Below are positions 15,579-40,400 of a stretch of 64,000 nt of DNA, piece after piece. The notes beneath the pieces are model-generated. The model did not search any database and was not told the DNA's origin. It worked only from the letters and a program-made list of their open reading frames with translations. The position numbers were made by a program, and so were the translations under genes. This DNA is from Candidatus Omnitrophota bacterium (GTDB taxonomy: Bacteria; Omnitrophota; Omnitrophia; Omnitrophales; Aquincolibacteriaceae): positions 21,879 through 85,878 of the forward strand of contig JAUYMS010000048.1 in the NCBI GenBank assembly GCA_030698625.1, given 5' to 3'. Position 1 is the stretch's first letter; each line of letters starts with the position of its first letter.

Positions 15579-16174
15579 AAGCCTACGCGGACTGGATGGC
15601 GCAACTCATTGAGGCATTCATTAAGTTTCCGGGAATCGGACGGCGTTCGGCGGAACGGATCGTTTTCTATTTATTGAAAACGAAGCGTGAAGAGGTAAGT
15701 CGCCTTGCCACGCTGCTTGGGAAGGTCCGCGACACGGTCTTTTTCTGTGACATCTGCCACAATTTTTCCGATGCCAAAATCTGCCACATCTGCTCGGATC
15801 CGGCGCGCGATCAGGGTGTCATCTGCGTTGTGGAGGATCCTAAAGATGTCATCGCCATTGATAAGACCCAGGAGTATGTCGGTGTTTACCACGTTCTTTT
15901 AGGTGCGCTTTCGGCTCTCGACGGCATCGGCCCTGCCGAAATCCAAATACAGGGTCTTCTGACGCGCGTCAAAACCGGTAAGGTGAGGGAGGTTATTATC
16001 GCGACCAATTCGAACACCGAAGGGGAAACAACCTCCCTTTATCTGGCTAAAGTCCTGAAACCGCTAGGCGTCAAAATTACCCGAATTGCGCGGGGGATAC
16101 CGGTCGGAAGTCACATCGAATTCATGGATCAAGCCACCCTGTCGCGAGCCCTCGAAGACCGCGTCGCGACGTAG
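15575..16174 (+). CDS. recR: Recombination protein RecR
   Basis: HhH region PGIGRRSAERI, C4 zinc finger CDICHNFSDAKICHICSD, Toprim ICVVEDPKDVIAIDKT. ATGA overlap with dnaX. Confidence 0.95.
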   Translation: MKAYADWMAQLIEAFIKFPGIGRRSAERIVFYLLKTKREEVSRLATLLGKVRDTVFFCDICHNFSDAKICHICSDPARDQGVICVVEDPKDVIAIDKTQEYVGVYHVLLGALSALDGIGPAEIQIQGLLTRVKTGKVREVIIATNSNTEGETTSLYLAKVLKPLGVKITRIARGIPVGSHIEFMDQATLSRALEDRVAT

Positions 16175-16454: not shown

Positions 16455-19400
16455 ATGAAAACAAAAAAACACGAAACCCAAAATCAGAACTTTCATCCGC
16501 TCCTGAAAACTACTGCGTGGATCATAGCGCTCGTTTTTCTCGTGGATACCGTTGCCTGGTCGGCGCCGGTGACGCCCGAGGCGAATATTCCCGCACCGAA
16601 CGTCTCAGCTTATCTTTACGATCTCCGGATTCCCGAAGCCATCGGTAAAATTGAAACGCGTTTTTTGCCGGCCGTCCCAGGGAAGGATACTCCCGTTATT
16701 ATTCACATCCAAGACGCGCACGCGCATCCGGAAGCCCAGCGAAATATCCAAGCGATCCTGGACCATCTCGGCAAGAACAACAAGATCGACAGGATTGCCG
16801 TAGAGGGTGCATCGGGAAAAATCGAGCCGGCCCTGCTTGAATTCTTCTCCGTTCCCAAAGTCAATGACGCCATGGCTGAGTACCTTACGGACATGGGGGA
16901 GTTGACCGGCACGGAACTTTATGCTCTTGAACATAAGGGGTCGGCCGCTTCGGTAAGCGGCGTCGAAAACGTCGATCTCTACCGCCGGAGTTTCTCCCTC
17001 TTTGAAGAGATCAAGTCCGAAAAAGAGAGCGTTGAAACGGCTCTGAGTTTCTACGGCCGCAAACTCGAGGAGCTGGAGATTCGGTACCTCGGAGAAGATT
17101 TGCGCCGATTCGTGGCACAGCGGAGGTTGTGGCAGGCAAAACAGGCAAGCGAGTCTCACGCCTACTTTAAGCTTATCGCCGAGTTTTCAGAGCGATACTT
17201 GGCCCTCAACTTTTCGGACCCGCGCATGCAGTTCACATGGCCGCATCTCGTGCGCATGGTCAAAACGGGCGAGATCGAAGCGGATCTCAAGCCGGAAGCT
17301 GCAGCCGGGGAGAGTTCGCAATTGGTTGTCGCTATCGCTCGGGCGTATCCCGATCGGAGTCCCATGAGAGATTTCCTTATCGGAGGGATTGAATCCCTGG
17401 GTTCCGAAGAAGGCCCTAAGGCGTGGTTGTCCCGCCAGAACGGCTTTGCCGACGTAAAAAACGTTCGCGAGTTTACGGAATTGCTCTATCGGGAATCCCT
17501 TAACAAGGATTTTAATCTCTTGAGTTATCCCCACCTGCTGAACCTTGCCGGTTTTCATATTTTGCGGGAGGAAATCGATGCCACGGCACTTTTTGCCGAG
17601 ATGGCCAAAATTGAAAAGCGTCTCGAAGAAACAGTGGTTCGCAGTGACGATGAGAAGATGATTCTGAGTCTCATCCATGATTTCGAACTCATCCAGAAGC
17701 TGCTTTCGCTTTCCATGACTCGCGACGACTACGAGGCCTATAAGACGAGAAAAGATGATCTTACGCCGCGTAGGCTGAGCGAGAGATTCCTTAAATGGAA
17801 CGTGTTACCGCAGACGTTTCCCGTACTCGAAGCAAAAGCAGTCGCGATGGCTGAAGAGTTTTATCTCCTTTCGCGTCGGCGCGACGAAACGCTCCTGGAA
17901 AACGCTTTGCGCCTTCCGGGGACCTCGCATCTCGTGCTCGTAGCCGGCGGTTTTCACAGCCAGGGTTTGCAGGCCTTAATGAAGGAGAAAGGAATTGCCC
18001 ACGCGGTCATCAGCCCGCGCATGACTCAGTTCGACAGCGATGGCCTCTATGAGAAGGTGATGCTCGGCGAGAACGCCAAGCTGGATCTGCTGCAGGCTAG
18101 AGGAACCGCGATCGTTAAGCGCCTCATGCTTCAGTTGTCGCAGGAATACAGAGCCTTGGGTCCTCTGCCGCGGGCCGAAGAGCAGGCGGTTCTGGCATTG
18201 CGCGCCATTCACAAAGGCGTCGAGGTTGCCAGAGCTCTTGGTATTTCTGAAAAGACATTGGCTGCAGAGTTAAGCCGGCAGATTACGCTCTCCAGCATTT
18301 TTAGCGGCACACGTTTTGGCGTCGAGTATGACGCGGCCCGAGACCGTGTTGTCTTCGGAGTTTGGAATGATCGGGGCCGCCTAACGCTTTTGGGTGAAGA
18401 TGCGGCCGTTACCGCACAACCTGCTGTATCCGATGCGGCTGCGTCGCCGAAACGAGTCGATGTTACGGCGTGGTATCTCGGGCCTGAGTCCACGCTTTCT
18501 GTCTCTTCGGGGTTTGTGGCAGCGGGCGAGATCTGGTCCAACCGCCGTACGTCGCGTTCCCGATCCGAACTTCGCGTGGAACTTGTCGCCCAAGAAAATC
18601 ACTGGGTCGGAAATTTCGTTAAGAACATCCTCAGAGTGGTGCGCGGGCGCGACAAAAACACGTATCAGCAGCTTATCACGGCCATTGACCGGGTTAATCG
18701 TCTCAAGCGTGAACTTCTCAATGACCGGGGTCCGGAGGGCCTTTGGGAGGTTCACAGTGAGGCCGATATCGGACCGCACCGCTACATCCTGAGAATCGAG
18801 AATATCGCGGAGCGTGTTTATAACGACCACTTGATCTATGATTTGCCCATCGCCCATCGCATCGCCTATGTGCTCGCGGTTTTTGACGCCAAGAATTTCC
18901 CCACACTGCACAAGCGAATCTACGATGTGGTTCGTGAGATCATCTACAAGCCTAACAGTGATGAGCTTGAACATAATCCCAGAGCCTATCGCAACCCGTC
19001 TTCCAAGGAAGCTGAGATTACGGCATCAGAGTACAGCCGCGTTGCCAATACGGTTTCGCTTGCCGAACATCAGGACACGATTGATCGGCACACGCTTCTC
19101 CAGTTTGCCCTCAACTGGATCGTATTCGACATTCCGCGCAGTCATCGCCTGGCCCTTAATAATGAGAGTTTTACTGCCGAGGGGCTCAAGGAACTCGACG
19201 TGCCCGGAAGCGGAAATATTCCTAAAATTGCCTTCATTACCGACTATCACGGCGCCACGCGTGTCGGGTCTCTTTTTGCCTTTCTTAGCGGAATTCGCAG
19301 CGATTACCGCAATGTGCAAAGCGTGGCAGATCTGGAAGCGAAAATTCTAAAACGATACGCACAACAGTTTCCGGGCAAGACGGCAGGCGAAATTATTGCT

Positions 19401-22400
19401 CAGATGAACATGCATGTCGTCGGAGCCGGAGACTATGTCGATCGCGGACCGTGGCCGGATCTGGGATACGAACTCAATAAGTTCTTCCGCGCTAACGGAA
19501 AACTTAAGTTCATCAACGGAAATCACGAGGTCTGGAAAGACTGGAATATTACCGGTGTGCACCTTCGAGTGCACGATGCGTTTCGTACCATCCTGGCCAG
19601 TGAAAAATTGGCAGAAAACCATATTAGCGAACACCTCAAAATCATAAGGCCGTTTGTCACCACCGTGGGGTGGGATGCTGTAAGGGATCAGGAGAAATTC
19701 ATAGAGCTGGAACGGCAATTAGCAGATCTGATGGCACGCTTCTTGGCAGAGGCAAAGAAAAACGGAGGTGTCCTGGATAATGAAACGATCGAAAGGTATG
19801 CCAATGTGGTGATTGATGCGGGAACTAACATGACGCATTCGCGTGAATATTGGTCACGGGAGTGGGGCGTTCACGGCAACTGGTTCGATACCCTGCTTGA
19901 TCGTTTGAATGCCCGCATGATCAACGAGGGCCGTGCGGCGGCCAATGACAGCATTAATGACAGCCTTCGCGATCGCTTGGCCGCGATTCTAGAGCCCGCA
20001 CCATTCGGAGAGTTGGATGCTGAGATTCGCGAGGGCCTCGAGGACGTTCGGGAACAGCTGTTGACCAATATCCGAAGCGGAGAGGGTCTCTTTACCCCGG
20101 TGGATTCTCTGATGTTTTCAGATACCGACGAAGTCCGCGCCCTTCTTCGTCGAATGAAAGAGCTCAAACGTGCCAACGAAGAAAAGCGCTTGCTGGGGCT
20201 CAGCCACGAACAAGTCAAGGTGCCGAGCCCCTTTGAGGAGACGGCAAAAGTGGCTCGGAGGTATCTGGATGAGACAAATAGGATTATCGGGTTCTTAAAT
20301 CGGGCCGTGAAAGAAGCAGAGATTCCGAGCTTTGAGGCAGAGCTGATCACGATGGAAAATATGCGCCATAACCCCGTGGTCCTCGAAACGGTGCAATGGG
20401 ATCTGGAGAATTTCAGGCAATTCTATGTTCACTCCCTCGGCATGGCGGTATCGCACGGCATCATCCCCTTTAAAGAGGGAACCACCGAGCTTAATGTCAG
20501 CTATAAGACCCGGGGCGGGCGCACCTTCGTAGGAGTTGCTGCGATCGATGCCATGCAAGTTGACATACGCCGGTTCTTTCAAAATATCGATAAGATCGAG
20601 GACACGGCTGAGTTCCGGCAGGAAATGGAAGACGCCCTCGGTCCCGCCTATGATATTTTGCAAGACTGGTACTCCGACCGACTCGGCATCCTCAAGGCGC
20701 CGGCGGTCTTACACTTTGCAGACATCGGCGGACCCACCAAATTTTACTTTTCCGACCCCACGGCTTACAGCCCCAGGAGATTTCAACCGAATGCGGGTTT
20801 TTTAATGTTTGGCCACGTCCCGATGTCAGAAATGAAAAAACGTGACCTTCCTTATCTCAACATGTCAACCCGATGGGAGTTGAGCGGATTCGTCAACGGA
20901 GATGACGGTATGTCCGAGGGGTATGACGGCCGCGGCTCGGTCGTTTTGATTTTCGACCGCGACGAGAATGGAGTGCTCGAGGGTTTCAGGCGATATGGTT
21001 TCAAGCGAACCTCTTTCTACATTATCAATAAGCTCGTGCCGCCGGAAGAGAAACTCCTCGCGGCGGCTGTGGCGGCCCTCAAAATAGCAAACGGAGAGAC
21101 CGAGGCGCCGGCCGATCAGGTTCGCGCCCGTGAACTGCAAGCGGAGATTGAAGAAAGGACGGAACGCATACGGGAATGGAAGGAAAGGGCCGAGCGTTTG
21201 GACCGAGACGGAGAAGAGATCGAAGATATTACGCTTTATAAGATTCCTCAAAAAACGGCGGACAGAATTCGCCCTTTCTTAAGCGGCGAGGGCCTGCTCA
21301 TGCATATGGTGGAGCAGAAACTGGAAGAGACCCGGAGAATTTATGGAGAGCTCTTAGAAACCGCTACTCAGTTCGGACGTGTTTGGAAGAAAGCCCATTA
21401 TAGGAAGAAGCTCAAAGCAACAAGCCGACAGCTTGCGAACTTTCGTATCACGACCGTCAAGAAGCTCCTCGATCGCGCCTCCAAGGCCTCCGGCCGGCTG
21501 CATTCGCAGGAAGTGCGGAGGCGCATCGACAAAGCGCTGTGGTACGCAAGGACTTGGCGCTATGCTCAATCCGAGAAGGCCGTTACCGCAGTTCTCAATA
21601 TCGTTCAGGGCCCGGAATTTGAATTGGGACCCAGCTCACAGCTTTTTGAGGATCTTGAGCGCGCGTATCTTATCCTCAGCAGGCATACCATGTCAGAGCC
21701 GGTTCTACTCCAACGCTCCGAGCTGCGGTCTGACCCTGCTGTTACAAGCACTGGTGAATCTGATGCTGAAGCTTTCAATGTCTATACCCCCGACAAAATT
21801 GTGCGCGGTATGGAGGAGGAGATCGGTGAGAAGCCGGTGCTCCTTGCCACCTTCTCAAAATACTTGAGGGCCATTGTGTCCCAGAGGACGGAAGGGGGCC
21901 GTACTGTGGCGATGCCTCCATTTTTCGTGATACCCGCCCATCTTTCCGAACGCATGCTGAGCAGCGGTCAGCCCTTCGACGAAATCACCAGAAGAAAGTT
22001 ATTGGAGAATCTCTTCGAGTTTAGCGAAAGAGGAACAGAAGCATTCGGTAAACCCGAATCACCGCTATTTCTTTCGATACGTGCAGCTGCACCGCGAATC
22101 GTGCCCGGCCAGTTTATTACTATCCTGAATGTCGGCATTAATGACGACACCTTTCCGGGTCTGGTTCAGCGCTTGGGAAGCCTTGAATTAGCCCAGAGCC
22201 GTTACTCGAAACTGATTCGCGACATTCTAATCGAAATCTATAATTATGAACGTGACGACATTAAGGAAAGTATGGATGAACTCCCGATCGAAAATTATGC
22301 GACAAAGGAGGAGTGGCGTTTAGCCGCACTGCGGAAGGCCTATCGAGATTTGCGCCAGGAAGAATTTCCGCAGGACGTTTACGAACAAGTGCGAATTATT

Positions 22401-25400
22401 ATGGATGGTATTTACAACCGCACACGATACACGTCAGCCGCTGCCGGAGCGCAGTTCCGAGGCGGTATTATGTTGCAACGCATGGTTTTCGGTATCGGAG
22501 AGAATTCTTACTCGGGCGAAATCGCCAGTCGGACATCAGAAGGGGACCGAATCATCCGGGGTAATATGGAGGCAGGCGTCCAAGGGGATGAAACAACGGG
22601 TGTCGTTCGGGTCGGTCAGGAATTCTTTCAGAGGTACCCGGAATTTACGAAAGCTATCGACGGTATTTTGACGGACGGTGAAAATTTTCTGCGCACCGCT
22701 GTTCAAATGGAGATTACCATCGAGAATAGCAAGGTCTATTTATTACAGCTGAAAGCGGCGGAGCGAACCAGTGATGCCGCGGCCGCCGTCATCATGGATT
22801 TGCTGGATCGAGGCGTCATTAATAGTGAGACGGCCTATGATATGGCTCAGAATGTCGACACGGATGCGCTGCGATTTGAAGAGGCGCTCGCGGGGACCGA
22901 TGCCCTGGTGAAGCTTGGCGGGGGTATTCACGTCTCACCGGGTGTTGCCGTTGGGCATCCGGTCATGACGAACGTAGGCGTGAATGAGAGCCGCCAGGGA
23001 GGAGTCCCCTACATCTTGGTAAAGCCCGAGATTCGTGCCCATGATCAGGAAGCCATTCAGGGTGCGAATGGCGATAAGGGTGCCGCGGCTATTGTGGCCC
23101 TCAATCAGATCGGAAATCATGCCGAGACCTTGGCGCTTATAGCGAAGATCCCCGCCGTGTTATCCGTACCCTTCGAGGAGATCGATTTACCACAGGGTAC
23201 ATTTTCGCTGCGTGGATCTGACGGTCAAGTGCATAGACTTCAGGAAACCAACCCGAATGACTTTATCTCGATTGATTCAGACGGCGCCATCTATTTAGGT
23301 AAGGCTGAAATTGTAAAGAGCCGCCGCAGCCTAAGTAAGCGTTCCGGTGATTTCCTTGCATGGAAAATGAAACTTGAGGGCAAGACGCCTGCCTTTGCCG
23401 TCAAAAGAGTGCCTTTCGGCTATGAAAGCTGGAGCACACCCTTCATCGAAGATGTGGTCAGTGAAAATGATTACTACCGCACGGTTCGTGACGGAGTGCG
23501 AGGCGATAAGAAGGTCTTTTTAATCGAACTTATTGATGTGGTCGAAGCCGAAGCAAAGCCGGATAAACAGAAAACAGAAAAGAAGGAACCTGAATATCGC
23601 ACTATTCCTGATTCGGTTATTATCGCGGCCGCTCAAGACGTGTTGGCTCGTGCCGACAGCATCGAGCAGTTCACTTTCTGGCTTTGGCGGCACTACGGTA
23701 AAATGGATCTTAATGCCTATCAGTTCGAAGAAAAAACGGAGAAGGGAAAAGAGATATTCTACGTGCCCTCTCACATTAAATACACAAACGAATCCGCCGC
23801 TCAAATTGCCTACATGCTGCGCGTCCTCAAGGGAAATCCTGAAAGGCTCGCGCAATCCATGTTTCATATGGTTGAGCGCCACAAGCCATGGAGCTATACC
23901 TTTAGGCGGGGGATCATTCCGCGCCTGTCGAGAGAGGATGCGTCCAAGTTCCTGGCTCTGGCGATGAACGAAGCTGTGAAACACGGGCAGAACCACATTG
24001 ATTTTATGATGCCCAGGCTCTTCGCGGAGCTTATCGAGAGTAACACCGAATTTGCGCTTGCCGTAATGCAAAAGGAATTTGGTCCCTTACAGCGCGGTTG
24101 GATGATGAATGGACTTTACGAGTTGTATGAACATCGTCGACTGCGGGAACGGACTATGGACTTTGATCTCCCTGCGGCGGAAAAATTAAAAGCGTTTCTG
24201 CTCGATAGTGTCGTGGATGCGGGAATCGAGTATCAGGTGGCGGAGAGGCATGAACACGGACCTCACGCCAGACGAGAAGTGACATGGACACATGACCCAC
24301 GCCTGCAGGACGAGATCGTTGCGTGGATTCGTACCCGAGAGAGGTCGGAATTGCGCGAGGCAGGGACCGCGATGCGGTCCGAGCTGCGCACCGGACCCGA
24401 TTCCGAGTATGTATCGAATGTCGTGTCGATATCGACAGCTGAGAATCTGTTGGATATCACGCCGGGCAGCATCAGTCAGCGATTTCCGGAATCAGACTAT
24501 GAGGCCCAAATCGATTGGAACCCCGGACTCATTCAATCAGACCGTGGTCTATCGCGGCTCACGATCATTCCGAAGACTGAAGGCAAAGCCAACCTTACCT
24601 ACGTCGTGAAGAGGGCCAACCCCATCAGGCGGGAGCTGGCGGCGCATTTCCAAGGTGAGGGCGATGTAGCCCAAGTTGCGTCTGATAGCGGGTTCGGCCC
24701 CGCCCTATTGCATCAAGAAGGCAACGTCATCATCGAAGAAAAATATCCGCCGGGGCATCACATCGCAGCTCGCGGTTTACTTCTTTCGCCCGTCGAATCA
24801 GCCGCCTTTGGCAGAAAGCTCGCCGGCGCACTTCACAGTATGATCACTCGGGGTCAGCTCGTTTACTACGGCGAAACACCTCAAACTCACATCATGATTC
24901 TGCCCACGAACAAAGACGGCCCCCGTATCCGCTTTTTGGACTGGAGCCATTCGCTTCCATTGCAGAATGACGCCGACCACAAAAATAAATTAGAGGCATT
25001 AAAACAATATGCCTACGTTATCAAAACCTTCTTGGCAAAACCGAGTAATAACATTTATGCATGGCGTAGTTTTGAAGCGACTTTCTTGAGTTTGGCGGAT
25101 ACGCTTGACATCGACTATTACGATGACCTTATCCACCAGGTTCGCAGCTACTATGCAAACAAGGAGACGAATCCGGATAAGGCATCTCGGGAATTATGGG
25201 GTGACTTTTTTTCGTATGCTGACGCGGCTCCGGACCTGGGCAGCGTTCGGACGACTATTGACCAGTCTGTGCCTGCAGAACGAGCTCCCGGAAAATTCGT
25301 TCAGAACCTACTGACATCGGTCAACATTGATTCGCAAGCCTTGCGCTCCGTCAAACTGATCTTGGAGCATGAGGAATATCTTGACGCGGAAATTGCGGAA

Positions 25401-28400
25401 GCCGTCGCGATGGACCTATTTGAGCGCGGCTACCTGGGGAGTAATGTGAATCGTTCCGGCGATGAAATTGCCAACGCTGCGGAAAGCTACCTTGCAAGTC
25501 AGGGCGTGGCCGCAGATGCCATAACGGCCATGCAGGAATCAATACGCCAGGAATTTTCCGAGAAGAACACGGGAATGGACAGAAGGTTTTTTTTAGGTGC
25601 GATTCAACGATTGGCCAAGCAACACAAGCTTTTCGAATCAATGAATCGGCGCGCGTACCGTCAGCTCGCAGAAGGTTTCTTCTCCTATCTGGTCGCTATT
25701 GAAGCAAGGCGAATCACCTTCAAAACCTCGATCTTACCCAACCTGCGAAATCGCGACGAGGGCGAGACATTGGAAGTTTACCTTGAGGGGAATCCCGATA
25801 CCCCCATCAAGGAATATGCGATTAAAGGGCGGCACAAAAACGGGGGCGGTGAACCTGCCCGTTCAACCCGTGCTTCAGAGATGAATTTGGGTCCGCACGT
25901 TGTCTTTGCGCGCAACGAGGAAAGGGTTCGGGAAAACGGGGGCATGCGGAGAATACCGCTCCGCATCGTAGAAGATTTATTGCCTCGCGAGCGGAACATT
26001 CGTCGTATCAGCCCCGGGACATTCACAGAAAATCCACAATACATGGGGATCCTGGTAGATAACGTGGCGACGAAGATTTACCGCATGGTTGATCCGAAGC
26101 GAGGCGACAGGACCATATTGCACCGTTTTGATAATGCCCCGGACCATATGTATATTTTGGACGCTGAACACGGTTTTGATTTCCTGATGATCGACTGGGG
26201 CTTTTCCAACTCGCTTATTCTCCCGACTTATGGCAACGATGCCGCCAAACATCTGGAAAGCATTTTCTCCGTCCTCTTGAGCGAGTTTAATAAGTTCGGG
26301 CCCGACTTTTGGAGCCGGTTCAGAGAGACCCTCTTGCAAATAGCGCGGATCAACGGAGGGCTGCTCGAGGCAGAAATCGAACAAGCGTTTGATAAGGTGC
26401 CCTACCAACCGTCTCGGCAGCGTTCCGAATTGCGCGAGGCAGGGACCGCGATGCGGTCCGAGCTGCGTATGCCGGATGAAGAAATTGCCGATCGGATACT
26501 GGATAAGATTTCACCCGAACGTCGGGGCAAGCGGAGCGTCACAAAGGCGCGTGTCCAAGAGCTGCAAGATGCCGTTGAAGCGGTGCGAACCATGTTGACG
26601 GTAGAAAATACCAAGAATGAACCCCCGGACAGCGACGTCTTTAAGAGCGAAATCTTTAATGCGATAGTCGACAGCAACTTAGTCCACGATTACCGGTTTA
26701 CAACCGGCCGGAACGCACCCAACTTTGCCGCAATGTTTCTTATCGACACGCAAAAACTTTTCACGATGAACGGAGATTACTTCGATGAAGCCTTTCCGGG
26801 AGAGGAAAAACCCCGCTATCTGGCAGTGATGGTAGGCCGGGATGCGGTGGTCGCAACAGCCATTCAAAGCGATCTCAATACGGATGATTTCAAATTTTGG
26901 GTGGACGGCGATTGGAAACATAAACTGTCCTCTGATTTTGACCTCGAGCAGTTTCTGCTTTCAAAAGGGGGCGTGCGCTGGTGGCAGATCGGAGAGTCGG
27001 GACCCTTGCGCGATGTTACTTATGACCAGAAAATAGCAGGAATACAAAAGATAACGAAAGACAAGCGGTTGGAGGCGAAGCATTTTCTCCTTGAACTTTT
27101 CAACCTTGCCCGAGCCATGTCGAACAAGAATCCGCCGGCGAATGTCTTTTTTGAGGGCGGGAAGACGGTTATTTTGGCAAGACAAAAGACGGACTTCGGG
27201 AAGTATCACAATCAGGATGAGATCCTCGCGCGGGCCCGGGAATTGGCTCTGGGCGCGGAGGTCCCAGTTGACGAATCATTTTCAACGGAGGATTTCAACG
27301 GTTGGTTTTCAGATGATGCGCGATCGCTAGAAAAGGACAGCCCCGTTTCAAAGCGCCACCGGATCGCGCAGCAGGTATTCAAAGAGCAAGTCGTTCGTGA
27401 CTGGGTCAAATCCGCGATCACAACAGGTGTGCTCGGGAAACGGTACCTTGCGGGACCGGACATGGCGACCGCGGATGTCATGAAGCTCGTTCAGGACACG
27501 GCTGATGAAGTCCATAACGATCTCGATTTATACCCCGCGCGCGTGACTACCAGTATCAAGGGGGAAGATGCGACCTTCGACCACATCAAATGGCGGACCA
27601 CGAGCATTAGTGTCGTGGCAACACTGCTTTCTTTTATTGATAACGAAGAGTTGATGAAGCGCGCCGGTTATGATCCAACTGATCCGGAACTAAAAATCGA
27701 TATCGTCATTCAAGGTTTTGGTGATGTGGGAACCGGGATCATTAATTACCTCTATGAGTCGCATAAGAACCGCTTGGACGGTTATGGGGGACCCATCCGC
27801 ATTGTGGGTGTTTCGGATGCCGACGGCGGGATCTACAACCATGGAGGTCTCGACATGGAGGAATTAAGGCGCCTGGCCAAGATCCGCGTGGGCGATGATG
27901 AAACTGAGGGAAGGCTTGTCGGCTTGTGGGATGAGTATTTGGGAGGGGAAGAGGCCCGCAAAGAGCCGGAGGCCAAGAAGGAGGCAAAGACACAGCGCGT
28001 TGACCACGGTAATGACATTTTCTATGTGCGTAATAAACATGAAGGGCGCATACGTGAAAGGCCGCTGATCGGAATCCCCGCCGCGGTGCCCGACGTTTTT
28101 CGCAGTGCCCAGGATATTCAGAAATTAAAGGACGATAGTGTCGTTGGGCTTATTTCGCCGGCGAACAATGTGCTCAAAGAGAACGCGGGCTTGGAGGCCG
28201 TACTGCAGGATCTCGGTATCTTCCTCTATGACGGCCCGCATGCGGGATTGGGCGGGATCTATTCGTCTTCGGCCGAGATATACGCCATCATGACGAGGGG
28301 CCTAGAAGCCGTTCGCAGAACTATGAGAGGTAACGACGATGTCTATGAAACGGATTATTATAAAATCCGTACACAGAGTGCCGTTAGAAACACTTCGCTT

Positions 28401-31400: not shown

Positions 31401-34400
31401 GCCAATTTGGGAATGAATGCGATTCTCTCTATTTCGCTGGCCATTGCACGTGTTAAAGCGTGGTCGGAGGGTAAGGAACTTTATCATATCATTCGCGAGC
31501 AGATGGAAGAGACCATGGCGAAGGTGATTGCAGCACAGGCGGATGGTGAGTCGGCTGGTCAGTGGGCGACCGTGCTTGAAGAGAATAGTTTCGATGAATT
31601 GGTGATGGCGTTTCAGGAAGCTTCGGGCAGAATCGCACAGAGTGAAACGCCTCTCTATGAAGTCGTTCGTCAACACCTGCCGGTTTATGACATCAACGGC
31701 GGCCCAAGCACCGTCAATGCCGACCGGTCCGAGCTGCGTCAGACACAGTATGAGCCTAAATCCGTTGAGGTTTTTGCCGAAGGCCTTGAGATGGGAGAGG
31801 CTGCTGCTGAACGTATCATCGAGGTGGCGGCGAAATACCACAACGAGGGCGGGGCCGTCATCCAAATTCCCACAGGATCTACACCGGTGCCGATGTACTG
31901 GCACCTCATCAAGCGCTTCGAAGAAGACCGCTCAATCGATTTGTCGCGCGTCAAATTTTTTAATCTCGATGAATATGTCGGCCTTGAGGCCAACCACCCG
32001 CTCAGCTACCAGTTTTTTATGCAGGAAGTACTCTACAAGCATCTTGATGCTATCGATAAGCAGCAGCGATTACAGCGTGCGCCGAAACCCGAAAACCGCA
32101 ATGTGCCCTCGATCGATTTTTTGGAAACGCATACCGGATACCGCCGCGAGCAGGGTGCGGACGCGGCTGCGGCCATCTATGAAGCTCGCCTTGCCGAGGC
32201 GGTGAAGGCGACGGGGCGCAACATATCGGACCTTACGATTCTGGGCGCCGGCGGCGCCTACCCCTTAGACGGACCCAACGGCTTCCTTAAGACCGACGAC
32301 GGCCGGTTTATCCTGGCCGGCGGGCATATCGGCTTTAATGAGCCGGGTTCCAAGCTGACCGACCGTACGCGTGTCATCAACCTGACGGCCAAGACCAAGA
32401 AGGACACGGGCTTTCGCTTCGGTAATATCCTCAAACGCGGCGATTATCGCGGCCAGTGGGCGGCCAAGGTGCCGGACCAGGCGATTACATTGGGTGTTGC
32501 CAATATTTTGCAGAGCGCCGAGATTCTTCTCCTCGCTAACGGCGAAGAGAAGTCGATCGTCATGAAAGAGGCCTATGAAAACGAGCCCAATCCGGATTTT
32601 CCCGTAACCTTCCTAAAATATCATAAGAATGTTCACTGGCTGCTTGACCGCGATGCCGCCAACAAGCTGCCGCATGTGCTGACACCCTGGACGGAGTATG
32701 AGGATTACGAGTGGACTCAGACAGGCATACGTCAGGCTGTCATCGAGGCACTACGCCGCAATCCCGGCATTACCATCGAACAACTGCGGCGCAGTCATCT
32801 CAACGCTATCGGCGTGACAAACCCGACTCTTGCCCGCTTCGGCGGCATTACGCAGATCAAAGAAGATCTCCGGACCTTTCTGCAGCCGCACTTTTCAACC
32901 GGCAGCAAGGCTCTGTTACCGCGCCGCCAGAACATTGTCATTTTCTCGCCCCATCCTGATGACGATGCGATTACCTCAGCGGCGACGATCCGCAAGCTGG
33001 TGGAGCGAGGCAACAATGTCACCATCGTTTATCAGACCGGAGGAGAAAATGCAGTTCGCAAGGAAGGTAAAACGATACAGATCCACGCGAAACTGGTCCG
33101 CGATTTCATTGCCCGCAAGGGCAAGGATCCGTCCGGCGTCGAAGACCTCGAGCTTCAGCGCATAGCACGTATCCTCACACGCAAAGAGGAGGCCGACAAC
33201 GCCGTTGCTGCCGCAGTTCGCGGCGCACGTTCGCGGGGAGGAGAACTCGGCACCGTGAAAACATTATTTATGGACCTGCCTTACTATTATGCGCGCGGTT
33301 TCGTTGACCAGGCCGCAGTGAGTGAGCAGAAGGATGTGATGCCCACCGTCGACGTATTGAATCAGCTGAATCCGGACCACATCTTTATTTCGGCCGAGCA
33401 GGACCCGCACGGGGCGCATGGCCTCGGCGTCAAAGCCATTCAGCGGGCGCTTCTGCACAACCGGTCCCGAGTGTCGCGGCATGTCAAGATCTGGGGTTAC
33501 CGGGGCGCTTATGAAGAGTGGCCGCTCGAAAACCCGGAAGGCCTCGTCATTGTTCCCTTCGATGAAGCGGCCATGGAAATAAAAATTGATTCAATCCTTG
33601 AGCATGTCTCCCAGCTGAAGCCTCTTTTCCCGAGTTTTGATCCGCGTGAGTTCTGGGAAAGGGCCCGTGACCGCAACGGAGCGACGGGCCGATTGCTGCA
33701 ACAGCTGGGTTTGGTTCCGCCTGACGGCAATTTCTATGCCGAGGTTTTTCGCATAATGACGTTTGAAGAGTTCACCGGGGCACGCTCGGAGCTGCGGGTA
33801 TCCGTCAAAGAAGTCTTGGTCGGGCTTGCGCTCGTGGGTGTGCTCGCGACCGGGTCGCACGGCGCACTACCGGCGAATCAGACGCCCACGCTTGCCCGTG
33901 CCACGCTTACGGACAGAAGCACGCTACCTTACGGGGTTATTTCGGATCACCCGGTGGTTGTCCTGACCGCCGATTCTTTTACGGTTCAAAAATCCGGGAG
34001 AAACCACTACCTGGTGCCTTCAGGAAGCGGTCTCAAGATTCAAGTCACTGCCGGCAGTGTCGAGGTTCGTGACGGTCTCGTGATTCAGGTCAGCGAAGGG
34101 GACCGGCACTTGGCGGCGTTCAATCTCAAAGGGGAGGTCAAAAAAGCCGTTGCGGCCTCGAATGAACGCAAACAAGGTGAGCGCGATTTGACCGACCTGC
34201 GGCAATTGGCGGTCAATTTAGGGACGGCTCTGAATCGCTCCTTTTCGAGAATAGACAGTGTTTCCCATGATTTTGAGATAATGCAGGCATTGAAGGCGTA
34301 TCGAGATCGTGTCGCAAAAGGTATTGATCTCGAGACGGATAAGGAGGCGCAGGAAGCTGTCGCCGAGATCGTCGCGGCTTATTTGGCGCGCATCGAGGCG

Positions 34401-37400
34401 GAACAACAGATTCAGCGCGGCATTGCGGATGCCGCCGAGCAATTGCTGCAAAGCAAGGACGTTTACGTCAAGGGCGCCGCGGCGAGTCTGCTGCTTGAAG
34501 TCTACGTGGCGGGCCGCATCGAGAATCTCAAGCAGTTTGATCGTAAAGCGCATCGGTTCGTTTCGCTCGGCGATCCCGCCGAAAAATACCGCAAGCAACT
34601 GGAAACGGCCCTGGCAATCGACGCGAAGGCCCTCGACATTGCGGTGACTGCGTTGGAGCAGGCGATCAAGGCATTAAAAGATGAGATCGCGAAGCTTCAA
34701 CCTCTCGTAAAGGCGGCAGACGATGAGCTAAAAGCGCTTGAAGTTGCCAGATCAACCGCCGAGAAAGCTATGGGAGATGCGAGGCAAAAAATCACGGCGG
34801 AACAGTATAAGCTTCGCCCCAAATACCTGTCGCGGTCAGGGGCCGCCGTCGGTTTGATCGCCCGTCTTGCCGAGGCGGAAAAAGATCTGACGACGAAGGA
34901 GAAGCGTGACGCGGCGATAAAAATCAGGGAAGAAATCGCTGTCGTCGAAGCGGCCATCCGTCAGCTCGATAAGGCGGTGGGTGCGGAGCAGACTAAGTGG
35001 TCCGCCGCGGACAAGGCGGTTCCCACGGCCCGCGGCAAAGCGATGCGGGTGAGTGGGCAGCTTACGCTGCGTCAGAAACCACTCAAGGCATTGGAAGATG
35101 CGCTCGGTCCGATTCGAGTCGCGCAAGAGGCCGCGGCAGCATCGCGCTCTGAATTGAGAATATTAGAAAGAGTAAAAGAAAGAACTCGGAAGATTGTCAG
35201 CGGAATCAAGTCCTACTCCGCTGCGTTCACGTATTACACGCAGGGAATAAGGCGCCGTCTCGACTTTGCCCGGGAGGTCGCATGGGCTGTTCTCAAGACC
35301 CGCCCCGCGATATTTATCGTTGCAGTGAGTCTTTACCTAGGTCTCTTTATGTGGGGCCGAGAGGCATTGCATGAACGTTATGTTCGGCCCAAGGTTGAAG
35401 TGGTCCGTTTTGATGAGCAGGGCCCGAATATCAGCCGCATCAGAATCGTCGACAACTCGATGAACCAAGCCCTGACTGCAACCGAGGAACGCCCCGAGCT
35501 CCCGTTTGCCGTCGTCCGCGCCCTTCGGACCATGGGGGCGACCGATGCGATAAGGCTTTCGCAGGTCAAGCAGATCGGCGCCACCGACTATCGCGAGCTT
35601 GACGACGGTAATCATGCCGTCACCATTAGTGCCGAGGCCCACGATCCCAATATGGTGCATCCGCCTCTGCATGATGTGACGGTTGTGTTGGAAGGCCCGG
35701 ACGAAGTCCCCAATGCCCAAGACGTGACGAATGTCCAGACGATGCTGATGGGCGAGCCGATTAAAGGCAAACTCGATTTGCAAAAGCACTTTGCCGACCT
35801 CTTCTATTTTGTGGTGGCAGGATTCGTCCCCATTCTCATTTACGTATTCGTAAGAAACGTCAAAATTGTTGCCGCAATGCCTTCAAGCATAAGAAAGAAG
35901 ACGAGGCGGAGGGTCAAGCCGAAAGAAGGCGCCGAGGATAAGCCTGCCGGCGAGGGCCAGCGACGCGACGCCGATGACCGCAAGCCCGGGGATCGCCCGG
36001 ACCGAGGCCGGCGCGACCGCTCGGAACTGCGTGAGGATGAGGGGAAAATTGTAATTGAAATTGATTTTCCGGCGAACCGCAATATCGATGACTTTCTCCT
36101 GGAGCGATTGCCTGCGATGTTACGGCAGAAGGGGCTTTATGAAACCGATGCTCTGGAGTTTGCAAGTGGTACGCTTGAGGTCGATGGGCAGACGCGCACG
36201 ATCGGTGTCAACAATATTAGCGTTCGGTACGACAAACCGGGGAAGGTTAAGCTTGTCTATAATGCGGAGCTTGCCGAAGAGCTTCGCCCCCTCAGTAACT
36301 TGAAGTATGAGGCATCCGATGCGGTAAGTGCCGCGGTTAAAAAACTTCTGTACTCTTCATATCGGCGATCGATGTTTGTTGCGGATCAAAAGTTGAACCC
36401 GTATCTCGACGTGGGTTCGGTGATTTATTTTAAGGACCCGGTCCCGGGCCTTCCGCCGGTCGTGGCCTTTGTCGGTGCAGGGAAGCAGGACGTCACTGTG
36501 GGCGAGGAGAAAGAGACGCGAAGCACAATTATCGTGAAATCTCTCTTTGCTGACGGCAAGCAATACGCGATTCCCGTCAGTAGTCTTGGCAAAGTCAGAG
36601 GCTTGGTCGATCGCATCCAAAACGATGAAGTGGAAATGGTGATTCCGAAGTCACGGATTGAGGCTGCGGTCGGACGCTATTTTATTCCAACCATTACGAA
36701 TGAGATGGCTAATCTGATTGAGAGATCGCATGCGACTTTCAAAGATCTGGCTGAGAACGTGCGTGTCAGGTTGCGTCTTTCTCCGCAAGGACAGATGCAC
36801 TTTCACCTGAGTGCTTTCGAAGAGGATTTTGATGCGCTGGCCGAGGATGGCTTTGTCCTGAGCGGTGACACCATTGCAAGCGCTGACCTCTATCTCGACA
36901 AGACGCGGCCGTCCCTGCGCGATCTCTATAAAGTGCTCACTTGGGATCTTCCCGCGAAGGCAAACAAACGGGAGGAGCGACTGCAGGAAATCAACGACGG
37001 CGCAGGATTCGGCGCTATCATTAGTGGTCTCGTCGAGTATCAAGACTCAGAAAATATGCTGTATCTTATTAGCCCGCCTGAGTTCGAAAAAGGCAAGCTG
37101 AAGCTTGGCGAGGATGCGCGCCAGATTGTTTGGACGGCCGGTTCCGAAGATGGGCTGCTTTTCGACGAATCTTTCGTTAAAGACGGCAAGCTTTCTCTGA
37201 AGTGGAATGCCCTCGACGGACAGGCGTGGTTTGTTGCCGTCATGCGGCCTACCCTTGATGTGAGTGACCGGAAACTGGTGATTCGCTTTGATCCGAAGAA
37301 GTTGGCGGAGCTCCCCGAGACGATTCATTTAGAACTCAAGAATCCGTCCGGGACCTCCATTCAACACGTTGAGTTGACCAAGGAAAGTCTTCAAGCGGCA

Positions 37401-40400
37401 AGGGGTGTTGCCAATGTCGCCCTTTATGCGGACTTCGGTTTCTTGGCTGAAGTGGCAGTAACCGTCAATCGCGAAGGGGCCGCCCTTGAAAAGGGCAGTG
37501 TCGTGATCGAGAGTATGTACACGCTGGAGCGTACGGACAAAGACCCGCCGGCAGGTAAGGCACCGTTTACGGTTGAGGAGACGACAACAAAGGGTCTGCA
37601 TGTTCGCTGGGAGGCGGCCGGTTTCTTTGACATGAAGGCAGCAAAAAAGCCTCCGCTCGATCTCCATCCCGATCTTTTAGCGAATTCCCGTTTGGGTAAG
37701 ACCTACAATGACTACCGAGTACTCGGCATAACGGGCGTAGATAAAAACGAATGGGCCCTTTCCGATGTGAAACAATTGAAGATCACCCTGAGCGGCGACA
37801 AGATTCCACAAGGGTTTTATCTTGTGGTTGCCAATACAGACCAGCCGGACGGGGTCGAATATAAGGGCCTTATCCGCCTCGCGATGCCCCAATCGATCGT
37901 GGGACAGAAGCTGGCCAAACCGACGACGCTTACCGTCGATTTTACCGCAAAGGGCCCGAAGCTCTTCCGGGACATTACGCCCGCGCGGGCGAATGCGCCG
38001 ATCGAAGCGCGCACGGTTGAGAACTTCGGTAAAGTGGGATGGGTGGCACTTCTTTTTAAGCCGGGGGACTTCGCCAAAGACCTGAAGCCCGAGGAGCACG
38101 TCGCCGACTTCAATGTTCACAGCATCGAAGTCGTGCGTTCGGAGCTGCGTAATTTAGAGAGGTTAAAGACAGAGGCAAAGGCCCTGCTCGAGCGCGCCAA
38201 GCCCTTCTACAACGAAAAGCTTGACGCAGCTATTGCCGAAATAGAGGCTGAGAATTTTACGCGTGCGAGCGACATTGTTGTTGAGGTCATTGGAATTGCA
38301 ATCGATAGGCATAACATGAAGCCCACGAGTGCCTTTGTGACGAGTCTGTGGAAGGTCCACTCCACACTCGAGCAAGCGGCGGATCTCAAGCGTTCGGAAC
38401 TACGGGTTGAATTAGCGGCGGATGAGGTGGCGACGGCCAACGGGTTGATCCGCCATCTTTCACCCAAGACGCCTCAGGCGGAGATTCCTAAGGATCACGT
38501 GCTTGTTGTGCTCGGTAATCCGCATGCGGATTATCCGGACTATGTGGCTGAGTTAGCGGAATATCTCGGCCCCACTAAGATTGTGATTGTCGGTAAAGGT
38601 GTCCGTGACGGCGAGGTCCCGGAGTGGAGAAGGATTCGCGACCGCATCGTAGACCTCAAGCCGGCGCTCGCCTCTAAGATCCTCGTGGATGAAAACGACG
38701 CCTCGATGCATACGGGTATGAATGTCACAACCGTTGCGAAGATCCTAAAAGACAACGGCATTACGAATCCTAATCTTGTGCTAACCCAAATTCCGACCGG
38801 TGTCCTGCTCTCGCGGCGTATCTTTGAAAAGCAGTGGGCCGAAAATGCGGCCCGAGCGGGCCTGAACCTGACCCCGAACTTTTTGACCTATGCGGTGGAC
38901 CGGAATTTCCGTCTCGCCGCTAACAAACCGTTAAGCAAACGTGCAGTATTCGCGGTGGAACATGCCCTGGGCCAAGTCGAACGTCTGCGCGACTGGCCGG
39001 CAAATGAAAACCCGCCTCTTGATGCGGTTGAAGGTGATGTCACGCCTGAAATTCTCAGTGCTTACGGCAGTCTGCAACGTGCACTCAAGCGCTCGGAGCT
39101 GCGTGATCTGGAACCCACGCGCGTTCTCGTCGCCGATGAACCGCAGGGCGGCGACATTGAGCCGCTGCGTGAAGTCGTGAATTTTTTTGCGGGAGACGCG
39201 GTTCTCATCGAAGGTGAAATCGAGGGCACCAGCAAGGTAGGTATCGGTGCTGATCACGATAAACTCAGAAAAGTTATTGAACAAGATAAGCCGGACGTCA
39301 TCCTGATTCGCTCCGGCGTTAAGAAAATCTTCAAGGACCCGGATTTCTTAGAATTCGCCGCGGCTAATGGCGTGCGCGCTATCATCCGCATGGGTGCGGG
39401 TATCGATAACGTTGATGATGTGATGGCCGCGGAACTCGGCATCGCTGTGATTCGTACGCATGGCAATGCAAACTCCGTGGCAAACGGGTTTTTGCGTCAG
39501 TTGCTTGCCGGTCTTGAGGCTGAAGACGGGCGGCTTGGCGAAAGCAGTGGGCCGGATCTGAGCGCCTCAGACCTCGGAGACATTTTTGACATTGATATTG
39601 ATGAGCTCGTCGCGGCAGAGGCCGAGGCCTCGAAGAATGCCGCCCGCGGTAAGACGCATCCGGATCAGGCAGGAAAAGTCTTCCACTCCATCTCCGCTGT
39701 GCGGGCCCGCGAACTACTTCAGAAGTTGGAGGGCCGTACCATCGGCCTCATGGGATTTCGTGCCGTGGCCTGGGCCGTGGCCGAAAAACTTAACGAAATC
39801 CGTACTCGCTTGAATATTGATTTTAAGATTGTCGCAACCTCTCCGACCCTCGATGGCAAGAATAAGAAAAAGGCGGCCGAGACCGCGGTCTTGCGTGAGG
39901 TCGCCGCTAAGTTTGGGGTGGAATATCCGGGCGAGGACGCGGTTTTGGCCGAATCCGATATCCTCTCGCTTCATATGTCCGCGGGTGACGAGCCTTATTT
40001 CACTAAGGAAATCCTCGAGAAAACAAAGGCCACGATTTGGATCAACACGGCAAGACAGGCGCTCATTGATGAAGACGATCCCGCATCGCTTAAGGCATTG
40101 AACAAGGCTTTCTGGGACGAATTTGTGGCGCGAGGGAACTTTTATTTCTCAGATGTGGATGCTCACGCGGCCTTTGAAGCTTTGCTGGCCGAGCATACCG
40201 GTCATCTTTTCCGCTCGCCGCATATCCTCGCCAGCACGGTGAACGCAGGTGAAGGGGTTAAGGCGCTGACGCTGCCCACGCTGAAAACCACGATCGAGCT
40301 GATGCGCGGCCTTGAGCAATCGACGCCTGACTTTGTCCTGGAGAACCTGAACGGTATATCTCTCGCTCCCAAAACCCCCGAGGTGCGCGGTCCTTTTGAT

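Follow-up and report, generated by a model that had tools for sequence, protein, structure and literature searches.

How is a bacterial protein to be understood in which the folds of an enolase, a glucosamine-6-phosphate (GlcN6P) deaminase, a phosphatase and other normally separate enzymes follow one another on a single chain? The question is raised by a 64,000-nucleotide (nt) stretch of DNA from a Candidatus Omnitrophota bacterium (assembly GCA_030698625.1, contig JAUYMS010000048.1, positions 21,879 to 85,878 of the forward strand; called the window in what follows), of which positions 16455–47366 (+) are one open reading frame (ORF) of 10,303 amino acids (aa) without an internal stop. An initial annotation had noticed a concatenation of central-metabolism enzyme folds at 19200–40260, which corresponds to aa 916–7936 of this ORF, and profile and pairwise searches back all six of its fold calls. 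We describe here the division of the protein into 17 modules (M1–M17) by a repeated peptide, RSELR, and tentatively propose that the chain is a polyprotein built from cassettes, with the peptide as its predicted processing site.

Giant ORFs are frequent in Omnitrophota and poorly understood (PMC10066038). Since multi-enzyme giants have already been described there (bioRxiv 10.1101/2023.11.21.568195; 10.64898/2026.06.07.730766), concatenation as such is not novel. West-Roberts et al. found glycolytic-enzyme, PPDK_N and HEAT domains in giants (‘Archaeovorins’), as well as N-terminal regions without identifiable domains, and suspected cleavage at points that are unknown, which blocks structural analysis (bioRxiv 10.1101/2023.11.21.568195). 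Unknown protease motifs have also been named as an obstacle (PMC11573180). For proteins of at least 10 thousand amino acids (kAA), a ‘multi-enzyme metabolic cluster’ class has been defined, with a topology at odds with an intracellular role (bioRxiv 10.64898/2026.06.07.730766).

A five-residue peptide marks every module junction

RSELR occurs 18 times in frame in the 10,303-aa protein, where 0.025 copies are expected from the composition; no copy was found in the other frames or ORFs of the 64-kb window. The 18 copies occupy all 16 junctions, two of which are doubled, and delimit modules of 80–1,046 aa:

18561–18575 (+): RSELR site 1 (M1/M2), in a disordered linker
21714–21728 (+): RSELR site 2 (M2/M3)
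24342–24389 (+): RSELR sites 3 and 4, doubled (M3/M4)
26421–26468 (+): RSELR sites 5 and 6, doubled (M4/M5)
29052–29066 (+): RSELR site 7 (M5/M6)
31725–31739 (+): RSELR site 8 (M6/M7)
33783–33797 (+): RSELR site 9 (M7/M8)
35145–35159 (+): RSELR site 10 (M8/M9)
36018–36032 (+): RSELR site 11 (M9/M10)
38136–38150 (+): RSELR site 12 (M10/M11)
38391–38405 (+): RSELR site 13 (M11/M12)
39090–39104 (+): RSELR site 14 (M12/M13)
41193–41207 (+): RSELR site 15 (M13/M14)
42990–43004 (+): RSELR site 16 (M14/M15)
43914–43928 (+): RSELR site 17 (M15/M16)
46464–46478 (+): RSELR site 18 (M16/M17)

None of the Pfam domains is interrupted by the motif, and the disordered linker holding site 1 has a predicted local distance difference test (pLDDT) score below 30 in the structural model of M1. 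The codons differ synonymously between copies at all five positions, which indicates that selection acts on the peptide. Neither internal repeats nor similarity among the 17 modules was found in the protein, and the nine different Pfam families present occur in one copy each. Hydropathy indicates an N-terminal helix and about 7–8 internal hydrophobic helices along the chain.

The two doubled junctions lie on either side of M4 and are encoded by direct repeats:

24340–24388 (+): 49-nt direct repeat, copy 1, coding for the doubled linker RSELREAGTAMRSELR, upstream of M4
26419–26467 (+): 49-nt direct repeat, copy 2, coding for the same doubled linker RSELREAGTAMRSELR, downstream of M4

The copies are 94% identical, 2,079 nt apart, and constitute the sole nucleotide-level repeat at the junctions. 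They resemble what a cassette insertion or duplication through recombination at linker-coding sequence would leave behind. DNA-level repeats as a general feature of the junctions were considered and rejected, as only these 49-mers were found and the remaining matches merely encode the motif.

At least two modules equal whole proteins

At least two of the modules delimited in this way equal stand-alone proteins from end to end:

29070–31727 (+): M6, multi-transmembrane (TM) domain with HERGH (29343–29357), then a circularly permuted enolase (Enolase_C 29940–30794, Enolase_N 30915–31490)
31743–33785 (+): M7, NagB deaminase (31788–32639) and PIG-L/LmbE deacetylase (32940–33440)

M6 (886 aa) is about 50% identical, at 98–100% coverage, to more than 100 stand-alone proteins of 825–990 aa (a family of about 870 aa), the termini of which fall within about 15–40 aa of the positions of the two flanking RSELR sites. 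For M7 (681 aa), the best stand-alone NagB+PIG-L match has 49% identity over 100% coverage; the stand-alone proteins, of PRK02122 type and about 650 aa, range from 610 to 660 aa.

In M6, Enolase_C (E = 1e-45, aa 4496–4780) is followed by Enolase_N (aa 4821–5012), so that the barrel comes before the N-terminal domain and the enolase is circularly permuted. The initial annotation had missed this reversal, though it had correctly recognized an enolase barrel with all catalytic and metal residues: the motifs MQE, GLEGG, LDPA, IEDG, DDL, KANQIGT, SHRS, LKSGG, GTSSGTGEA and GGVH can all be aligned, and none of them varies among 8 homologs. In yeast numbering, the sites concerned are E168, E211, D246, E295, D320, K345, H373, K396, S39 and H159. 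Compared with the canonical enolase (TIGR01060), both domains and all active residues are alike, but the order is reversed, the enzyme is fused to a multi-TM HExxH domain, and the score of 208.9 bits is below the equivalog cut-off of 300. The aligned stand-alone proteins all combine a permuted enolase with the membrane domain that bears HExGH. They come from WOR-3, Eisenbacteria, Hydrogenedentes, Omnitrophota and others and are annotated just as ‘enolase’ or ‘hypothetical’; a search for literature on a circularly permuted transmembrane enolase found none. The M50-like HExxH domain was considered as a protease serving the whole family to which the giant protein belongs (described below), and was discarded on account of its weak match to Peptidase_M50 (E = 0.076) and the presence of an M6-like module in 1 of the 150 best family representatives. 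A conserved operon of stand-alone module homologs was also rejected, since the two contexts considered (L003 and L004) are unrelated to the other modules.

M7 matches Pfam Glucosamine_iso and PIG-L and aligns with NagB 3hn6 (E = 1e-28). Its catalytic motifs are intact: LDEY, GHIGFNEPGS, SPHPDDD and DPHGAHG are all present, are invariant in 6 modules, and cover Asp72/His143/Glu148 of NagB as well as the zinc motifs of LmbE. Against NCBIfam NF002557 (PRK02122) it scores 335.7 bits (cut-off 384), the best stretch being profile positions 170–638 of 653. Every module of the protein scores below the NCBIfam equivalog cut-offs; the modules are divergent relatives, and not orthologs, of housekeeping enzymes.

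Other enzyme-type modules

Four further modules resemble enzymes, with catalytic features retained to different degrees:

18579–21716 (+): M2, PPP-type metallophosphoesterase with large insertions (Pfam match 19224–19553; GH motif 20808–20822)
21732–24344 (+): M3, PPDK-like ATP-grasp and phospho-His domain (domains 21912–23489; His in IGNHAETL, 23109–23132), then a helical C-terminal subdomain
26472–29054 (+): M5, NAD(P) Rossmann domain of glutamate dehydrogenase (GDH) type (27699–28295), then HEAT repeats (28734–29015)
39108–41195 (+): M13, D-2-hydroxyacid dehydrogenase-like (Pfam region 39357–40079)

The phosphatase call holds for M2, which matches Pfam Metallophos with 25.4 bits (cut-off 21.5) at aa 924–1033. 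Owing to the large insertions, the match covers only profile positions 2–72 of 191. The motifs TDYHG (929), GDYVDRG (992), GNHE (1022) and a distal GH (1453; FGHV) correspond to the PPP/calcineurin-like set (DxH, GDxxDR, GNH[DE], later GH), which is kept in 7 of 9 related modules.

For M3 (aa 1760–2630), a search of a 5.8-billion-sequence database gave E = 1e-27 to PPDKs; it returned only ordinary PPDKs and no giant relatives, the protein itself likewise being absent. Module residues 61–586 align with residues 36–576 of the C. symbiosum PPDK 1dik (E = 3e-30), with the His of IGNHAETL (aa 2222) opposite the His of TSHAA, which we take to be the catalytic phospho-His of PPDK. The fold and the retained His were therefore called correctly, but the module is incomplete: the phosphoenolpyruvate (PEP)/pyruvate TIM barrel (PF02896) was not found in M3, which leaves the three-part PPDK architecture incomplete, and the GGKG region fails to align. 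The barrel is replaced by a different, helical subdomain in the C-terminal 285 aa. This subdomain recurs in P0104, a partial Ca. Omnitrophota protein in which a permuted enolase is followed by the M3 helical homolog (E = 1e-18) with no RSELR between them; parts smaller than a module are therefore recombined as well. A further unusual combination of glycolytic modules is P0024 (Logan, 1,309 aa), in which PPDK N-terminal and phospho-His domains and a phosphoglycerate kinase (PF00162) are joined to an extended helical region at the N-terminus.

M5 matches Pfam ELFV_dehydrog with 34.2 bits (cut-off 23.4) at aa 3749–3947 and contains GFGDVG. The GDH-like Rossmann domain is thus supported, but only this C-terminal NAD(P) half of GDH is detectable, and matches to GDHs in the PDB are weak (E = 0.002–0.04). 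M13 exceeds the Pfam cut-offs for both 2-Hacid_dh and 2-Hacid_dh_C. Of the Arg/Glu/His triad attributed to it, the Arg (NTAR) and His (SPHI) are retained and the Glu could not be verified, while the Gly-rich NAD loop is degenerate (GFRAVA, compared with GFGPLG in a relative). The statement that several modules have intact catalytic residues is accordingly accurate for the enolase, NagB, LmbE and the phosphatase, and too strong for the PPDK, 2-hydroxyacid dehydrogenase and GDH modules.

The conserved head and tail

The two ends of the chain are formed by conserved modules:

16500–16568 (+): N-terminal hydrophobic helix, aa 16–38, signal-peptide- or anchor-like by hydropathy (helix 15–36 in the model)
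16632–18392 (+): M1 core, TIKI/TraB/ChaN/EreA-fold domain with H89, E117 and H501 (HIQDAH, VEG, GGFH), the universal N-terminal domain of the family
46482–47363 (+): M17, conserved C-terminal module, Rossmann-like alpha/beta of generic fold, ending in FYEAA-COOH

M1 (aa 1–703) has no Pfam or NCBIfam match. Its structure was modelled with AlphaFold2 from a 32-sequence alignment (pLDDT 82, predicted template modelling score 0.78), and the model contains the parallel beta-sheet core of the TIKI/TraB/ChaN/EreA superfamily. The figures listed for its structural relatives are 9.5 for HopBA1, 9.4 for 2rad, 8.8 for a TraB-family protein, 8.7 for ChaN, 8.6 for 2qgm, 7.6 for the MARTX effector RRSP and 7.5 for EreC. 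It differs from the TIKI/TraB/PrgY/ChaN/erythromycin-esterase superfamily in a helical insertion of about 310 aa. The TIKI-type superfamily includes sequence-specific endopeptidases with a 2His/2Glu site (PMC6254334), e.g. RRSP and Tiki. H89 and E117 are conserved without exception in all 151 sequences, and so is H501, the His of GGFH, in 147 of 147. Being the only universal module, with the right fold and invariant residues of catalytic type, M1 is the best candidate for a protease acting on the chain. The N-terminal helix has a positively charged N-flank and AWSAP on its C-terminal side; by the positive-inside rule, M1 appears to face the periplasm.

At the other end of the chain (47349–47363 in the window), the C-termini of the family are [AS]A-COOH in 94 of 150 representatives, with a terminal Ala in 108 of 150. 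These ends resemble the nonpolar tails read by tail-specific or AAA+ proteases.

A large family with variable cargo and related junction motifs

A search with M1 returned 7,433 cluster representatives (50% identity) at E < 1e-3 and 5,519 at E < 1e-10. The M1 match is always N-terminal in the family proteins, which reach 7,840 aa. The named relatives of M1, like those of M4, are from Candidatus Omnitrophota, and the M1-headed family is apparently specific to this group. The protein described here thereby joins a very large group of long, membrane-anchored chains. Between a conserved head and a conserved tail they have a lineage-variable cargo, each module of which appears to be a complete protein: an enzyme of sugar-phosphate or central metabolism, a membrane protein, or a protein with a signal peptide of its own. 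Family statistics refer to the best 150 of the 7,433 representatives together with this protein (n = 151).

The most strongly over-represented pentapeptide in many members is R[SA]E[LVMAIQST]R. R[SA]ExR occurs 542 times where 25 occurrences are expected; strong enrichment is seen in 68 of the 151 proteins, among them 54 of the 90 representatives of at least 2,000 aa. A further 19 family proteins have a [GAS][AS]SLG-type (xSLG) motif in its place; in members of this branch (P0174, P0201, P0204, P0242, P0251, P0267 and others) up to 14 copies per protein were counted, where about 0.1–0.2 are expected. The first junction site follows directly on M1 (median aa 645), the median spacing is 286 aa, and small residues are mildly preferred in the motif flanks.

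The cargo is far less constant than the head. Among the best 150 representatives, M1 is universal and M17 is found at the C-terminus of 10, whereas M2 occurs in 8, M7 in 5, M13 in 3, M12 in 2, M6 and M4 in 1 each, and the other modules in none. The M7-type modules of the 5 relatives have the motif on both sides and differing neighbours, and the catalytic motifs of M7 and M2 modules are invariant among relatives. A Pfam search of two relatives (E ≤ 1e-5) gave almost nothing, which shows that cargo modules are very divergent. Segments resembling signal peptides or TM helices lie within 5–35 aa after the motif in 4.8% of cases, compared with 0.8% upstream of it and a background of 1.9% (Fisher p = 1.4e-4). 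These post-motif segments include lipobox and AxA sites, and in P0262 a twin-arginine (Tat)-like SRRRLL follows the motif.

Cargo replacement at a syntenic locus

The order of genes in the window recurs at a second locus (L005), which lies on an ENA contig of 353 kb: dnaX, recR, a giant gene, a response regulator, a PHP-like gene, an S15 hydrolase, a ceramidase, a glucoamylase, a helix-turn-helix (HTH)/cupin gene and an OEP gene, with flanking proteins 41–73% identical to those of the window. Its giant protein, P0154 (4,766 aa), has only M1 (37% identity), M12 (41%) and M17 (27%) in common with the giant of the window. A second family member just upstream, P0155, contains the closest M7 (53% identity). 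As the cargo of P0154 differs and M7 is found in P0155, cargo has been replaced at the orthologous locus and exchanged among paralogs.

P0155 (2,622 aa; 1–3964 of L005) and P0154 (10001–24301) both use RSE[LVI]R and are about 6 kb apart, with three small ORFs, dnaX and recR between them. The same interval contains 136-nt tandem repeats (98% identical) at 8720–9038, over the 3′ end of dnaX and the dnaX–recR spacer, and 61-nt near-tandem repeats at 9644–9769, between recR and the giant gene.

A predicted polyprotein and its alternatives

The reading that we prefer, at a confidence that comes close to an even call, is that the chain is a cassette-built polyprotein and that the motif is a predicted processing site, possibly cut by the protein's own N-terminal domain. 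The motif would be recognized and cleaved, most plausibly by the TIKI-type domain of M1; the released modules would then work independently as enzymes or membrane proteins, each at its own destination, and new cargo would enter through recombination at linker-coding sequence, as the 49-nt direct repeats flanking M4 suggest. Its generalization is more tentative: Omnitrophota may possess self-processing polyproteins (an ‘operon in one ORF’) in which a membrane-anchored TIKI-type endopeptidase cuts R-[SA]-E-x-R or xSLG, exchangeable cargo is freed, and cassettes are swapped at the linkers.

Several observations weigh against this. Cleavage is something we infer, and no homologous protease–substrate pair supports it; a short linear motif in many copies might serve to bind a partner protein instead. 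In M1, D87 (Asp in 124 sequences, Asn in 19) stands at the position of the first Glu of the 2His/2Glu set of RRSP, and the TIKI fold also covers esterases and haem binders. M1 appears to be outside the cytoplasmic membrane, which fits poorly with a cytoplasmic release of modules bearing signal peptides; the substrates of many cargo enzymes are cytoplasmic, and part of the cargo has export signals of its own. R[SA]ExR is not strongly enriched in 36 of the 90 representatives of at least 2,000 aa. Finally, co-variation between M1 columns and motif type (R-type compared with SLG-type) is confounded by phylogeny; the column that ranks first is the motif, and there is a difference at one column beside E117.

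The chain might alternatively remain uncleaved, as a membrane-anchored multi-enzyme scaffold (a surface or periplasmic array, or a tethered metabolon) in which the motif is a linker element or a docking site; the docked partner, common to the copies, would be, for example, a chaperone, a secretion factor or an assembly protein, and the whole chain would work as a single polypeptide. We regard this as less likely than processing, but as its chief and a serious rival. The ORF is continuous, with 8–9 hydrophobic helices spread along it, and a scaffold would also suit the HEAT repeats and coiled-coil modules; topology predictions in the literature assign the metabolic parts of Omnitrophota giants to the membrane or the periplasmic side, and peptides of a giant ORF, the product of which was proposed to form a coat, were detected in V. 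archaeovorus. A passive linker, however, fails to explain the identity of five residues at all 18 sites despite synonymous codon drift, and leaves unexplained both the lineage-specific motif variants, which are uniform within a protein, and the fact that modules begin and end exactly as independent proteins do and retain their targeting signals. Moreover, the substrates of the conserved active sites (2-phosphoglycerate/PEP, GlcN6P, NAD(P), ATP) are cytoplasmic. That the modules are mostly pseudoenzymes, i.e. folds recruited to bind or adhere to prey-cell metabolites or surfaces with catalysis irrelevant, is improbable. The missing PEP/pyruvate domain and unaligned GGKG region of M3, the degenerate GxGxxG loop of the 2-hydroxyacid dehydrogenase, the undetectable catalytic half of GDH and the scores of all modules below equivalog cut-offs could all be understood in this way, but the catalytic and metal ligands of the enolase are all kept and invariant over the 8 aligned homologs, and the NagB, LmbE and metallophosphatase motifs are invariant although the modules are only about 45–53% identical.

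The motif could also act mainly at the level of DNA, as the footprint or attachment sequence of in-frame cassette integration, without a role in the mature protein. The position of M4 between 94% identical repeats coding for the doubled linker, the shifting of modules between paralogs and their replacement at the syntenic locus would all agree with such an origin. Outside the M4 repeats, however, the 18 sites are no more alike in nucleotide sequence than the peptide requires, with every synonymous codon family in use, and an invariant amino-acid sequence requires selection on the peptide; we consider a purely DNA-level role to be a minor candidate for these reasons. Recombination at linkers is in any case compatible with the polyprotein model and probably part of it. 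An artefact, whether an assembly chimera or neighbouring genes fused into one ORF through sequencing errors, is extremely improbable. Metagenomic giant ORFs are generally liable to assembly trouble, but no positive point speaks for it here: the frame is open over 30.9 kb at 52% GC, the G+C content is even along the whole ORF (0.51–0.57), an independent Logan contig (SRR13727534) contains an identical recR and, after it, codes for the first 2,641 aa of the protein or more, dozens of relatives of 4,000–7,800 aa have the same architecture, and the syntenic ortholog sits on a 353-kb contig.

Comparison with known systems

Among the Omnitrophota giants, the protein is closest in kind to the multi-enzyme metabolic clusters. 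It shares with them a length of at least 10 kAA, an N-terminal signal or TM segment with internal TM helices, and many single-copy metabolic Pfam domains, including PPDK_N-like and HEAT_2, with no dominant repeat. Unlike here, the papers on those giants report no inter-module motif, and this gene differs in its location between recR and a response-regulator gene. By the published criteria it cannot be grouped with the Archaeovorins (at least 30,000 aa, SecA-related, with C39/S8, a T2SS-like locus and PilZ): the protein has 10,303 aa and no SecA, C39 or S8 Pfam domains, and neither genes like those of a type II secretion system (T2SS) upstream of the giant gene nor PilZ genes downstream were detected within the window. 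In the searchable texts of the Omnitrophota giant-protein literature, no junction motif, TIKI-like head or whole-protein cassettes were found, and the literature searched contained nothing relevant on RSELR, RAEVR, RSEVR or an Omnitrophota polyprotein. Within the literature that could be searched, the punctuated, cassette-like architecture is previously undescribed.

The initial annotation had offered four possibilities (a toxin-like polyprotein analogous in logic to MARTX effector arrays, a secreted enzyme cassette, a scaffolded metabolon, or enzyme folds recruited as binding modules), and the motif, the whole-protein modules, the N-terminal hydrolase fold and the variable cargo favour the first, without making the protein a MARTX member. 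As in MARTX toxins, conserved termini enclose a variable array of unrelated enzymatic modules with short inter-module sites, which in MARTX are cut by an embedded protease, and M1 has the TIKI fold in common with the effector RRSP. There is however no sequence relationship, and the cargo is made up of enzymes of housekeeping type plus polytopic membrane proteins rather than known cytotoxic effectors; Pfam and repeat searches detected neither RTX/glycine-rich repeats nor a C80 cysteine protease domain (CPD) in this protein. The viral polyproteins of picornaviruses, flaviviruses and potyviruses are similar in that complete proteins are encoded in one ORF with a short conserved separator and a protease-like domain in the chain. 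They differ in that the present gene is cellular and chromosomal, and in that its putative protease is of the TIKI/TraB type and not chymotrypsin-like or papain-like.

Remaining modules and genomic neighbourhood

The other modules could be assigned to families weakly or not at all:

24393–26423 (+): M4, fold without family match; a relative is found in a Ca. Omnitrophota metagenome-assembled genome (MAG)
33801–35147 (+): M8, signal-peptide-like segment right after the motif (VSVKEVLVGLALVGVLATGSHGA), then coiled coil
35163–36020 (+): M9, two hydrophobic helices, by hydropathy
36036–38138 (+): M10, without family match
38154–38393 (+): M11, helical, 80 aa
38409–39092 (+): M12, weakly DUF218-like, 41% identical to a module of the syntenic ortholog P0154
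41211–46466 (+): M14–M16, three modules, helical or coiled-coil, without detectable family

M4, M10 and M14–M17 have no Pfam, NCBIfam or PDB sequence matches. An early guess that M4 is kinase-like was dropped, as these searches lent it no support. The M4 relative in the Ca. Omnitrophota MAG begins its own ORF with a signal peptide.

The giant gene is flanked by the following conserved neighbours:

13905–16174 (+): dnaX and recR, upstream, a conserved synteny anchor also present in L005
47381–50470 (+): genes for a response-regulator-domain protein, a PHP-domain protein and an S15/S9-type alpha/beta hydrolase, downstream, all kept beside the orthologous giant gene in L005

The products of the three downstream genes are 41–54% identical to their counterparts in L005 (24483–27758), and the response-regulator-domain protein has, besides its receiver domain, an N-terminal half of about 120 aa without annotation. 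The three genes are candidate functional partners of the giant protein, and the S15/S9-type hydrolase is an alternative candidate for the protease. Genes for polysaccharide synthesis precede dnaX and recR; further downstream are genes for ceramidase-like, CHASE2 histidine kinase, glucoamylase, TolC-like and HlyD-like proteins. Between the gene of a family 2 glycosyltransferase (GT2) and dnaX (11243–13850), there are two adjoining ORFs of 420 and 450 aa, with an 8-nt overlap between the end of the first and the second; neither has a Pfam match. Scans of the 64-kb window for rRNA, tRNA and Rfam families gave no matches.

Implications

Giant ORFs fill a sizeable share of very small Omnitrophota genomes, and the fate of their products is explicitly an open question. 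The junction peptide offers a way in, as it is lineage-specific, coincides with the ends of whole proteins, and is paired with a universal domain of hydrolase fold. It gives predicted module boundaries for in-silico segmentation, as well as exact peptides (e.g. TSRSRSELRVELV) and point mutants for a cleavage assay. The family of permuted, membrane-anchored enolases is of independent interest. If the proposal is true, the inter-module motif would show where giant bacterial proteins are cleaved, a map that has long been looked for. Processing, if real, would provide a cellular counterpart to viral polyprotein expression and resolve the paradox of cytoplasmic-type enzymes on an exported-looking chain. 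It would also change the metabolic scoring of these genomes, in which enolase, NagB and similar enzymes may hide within giant ORFs.

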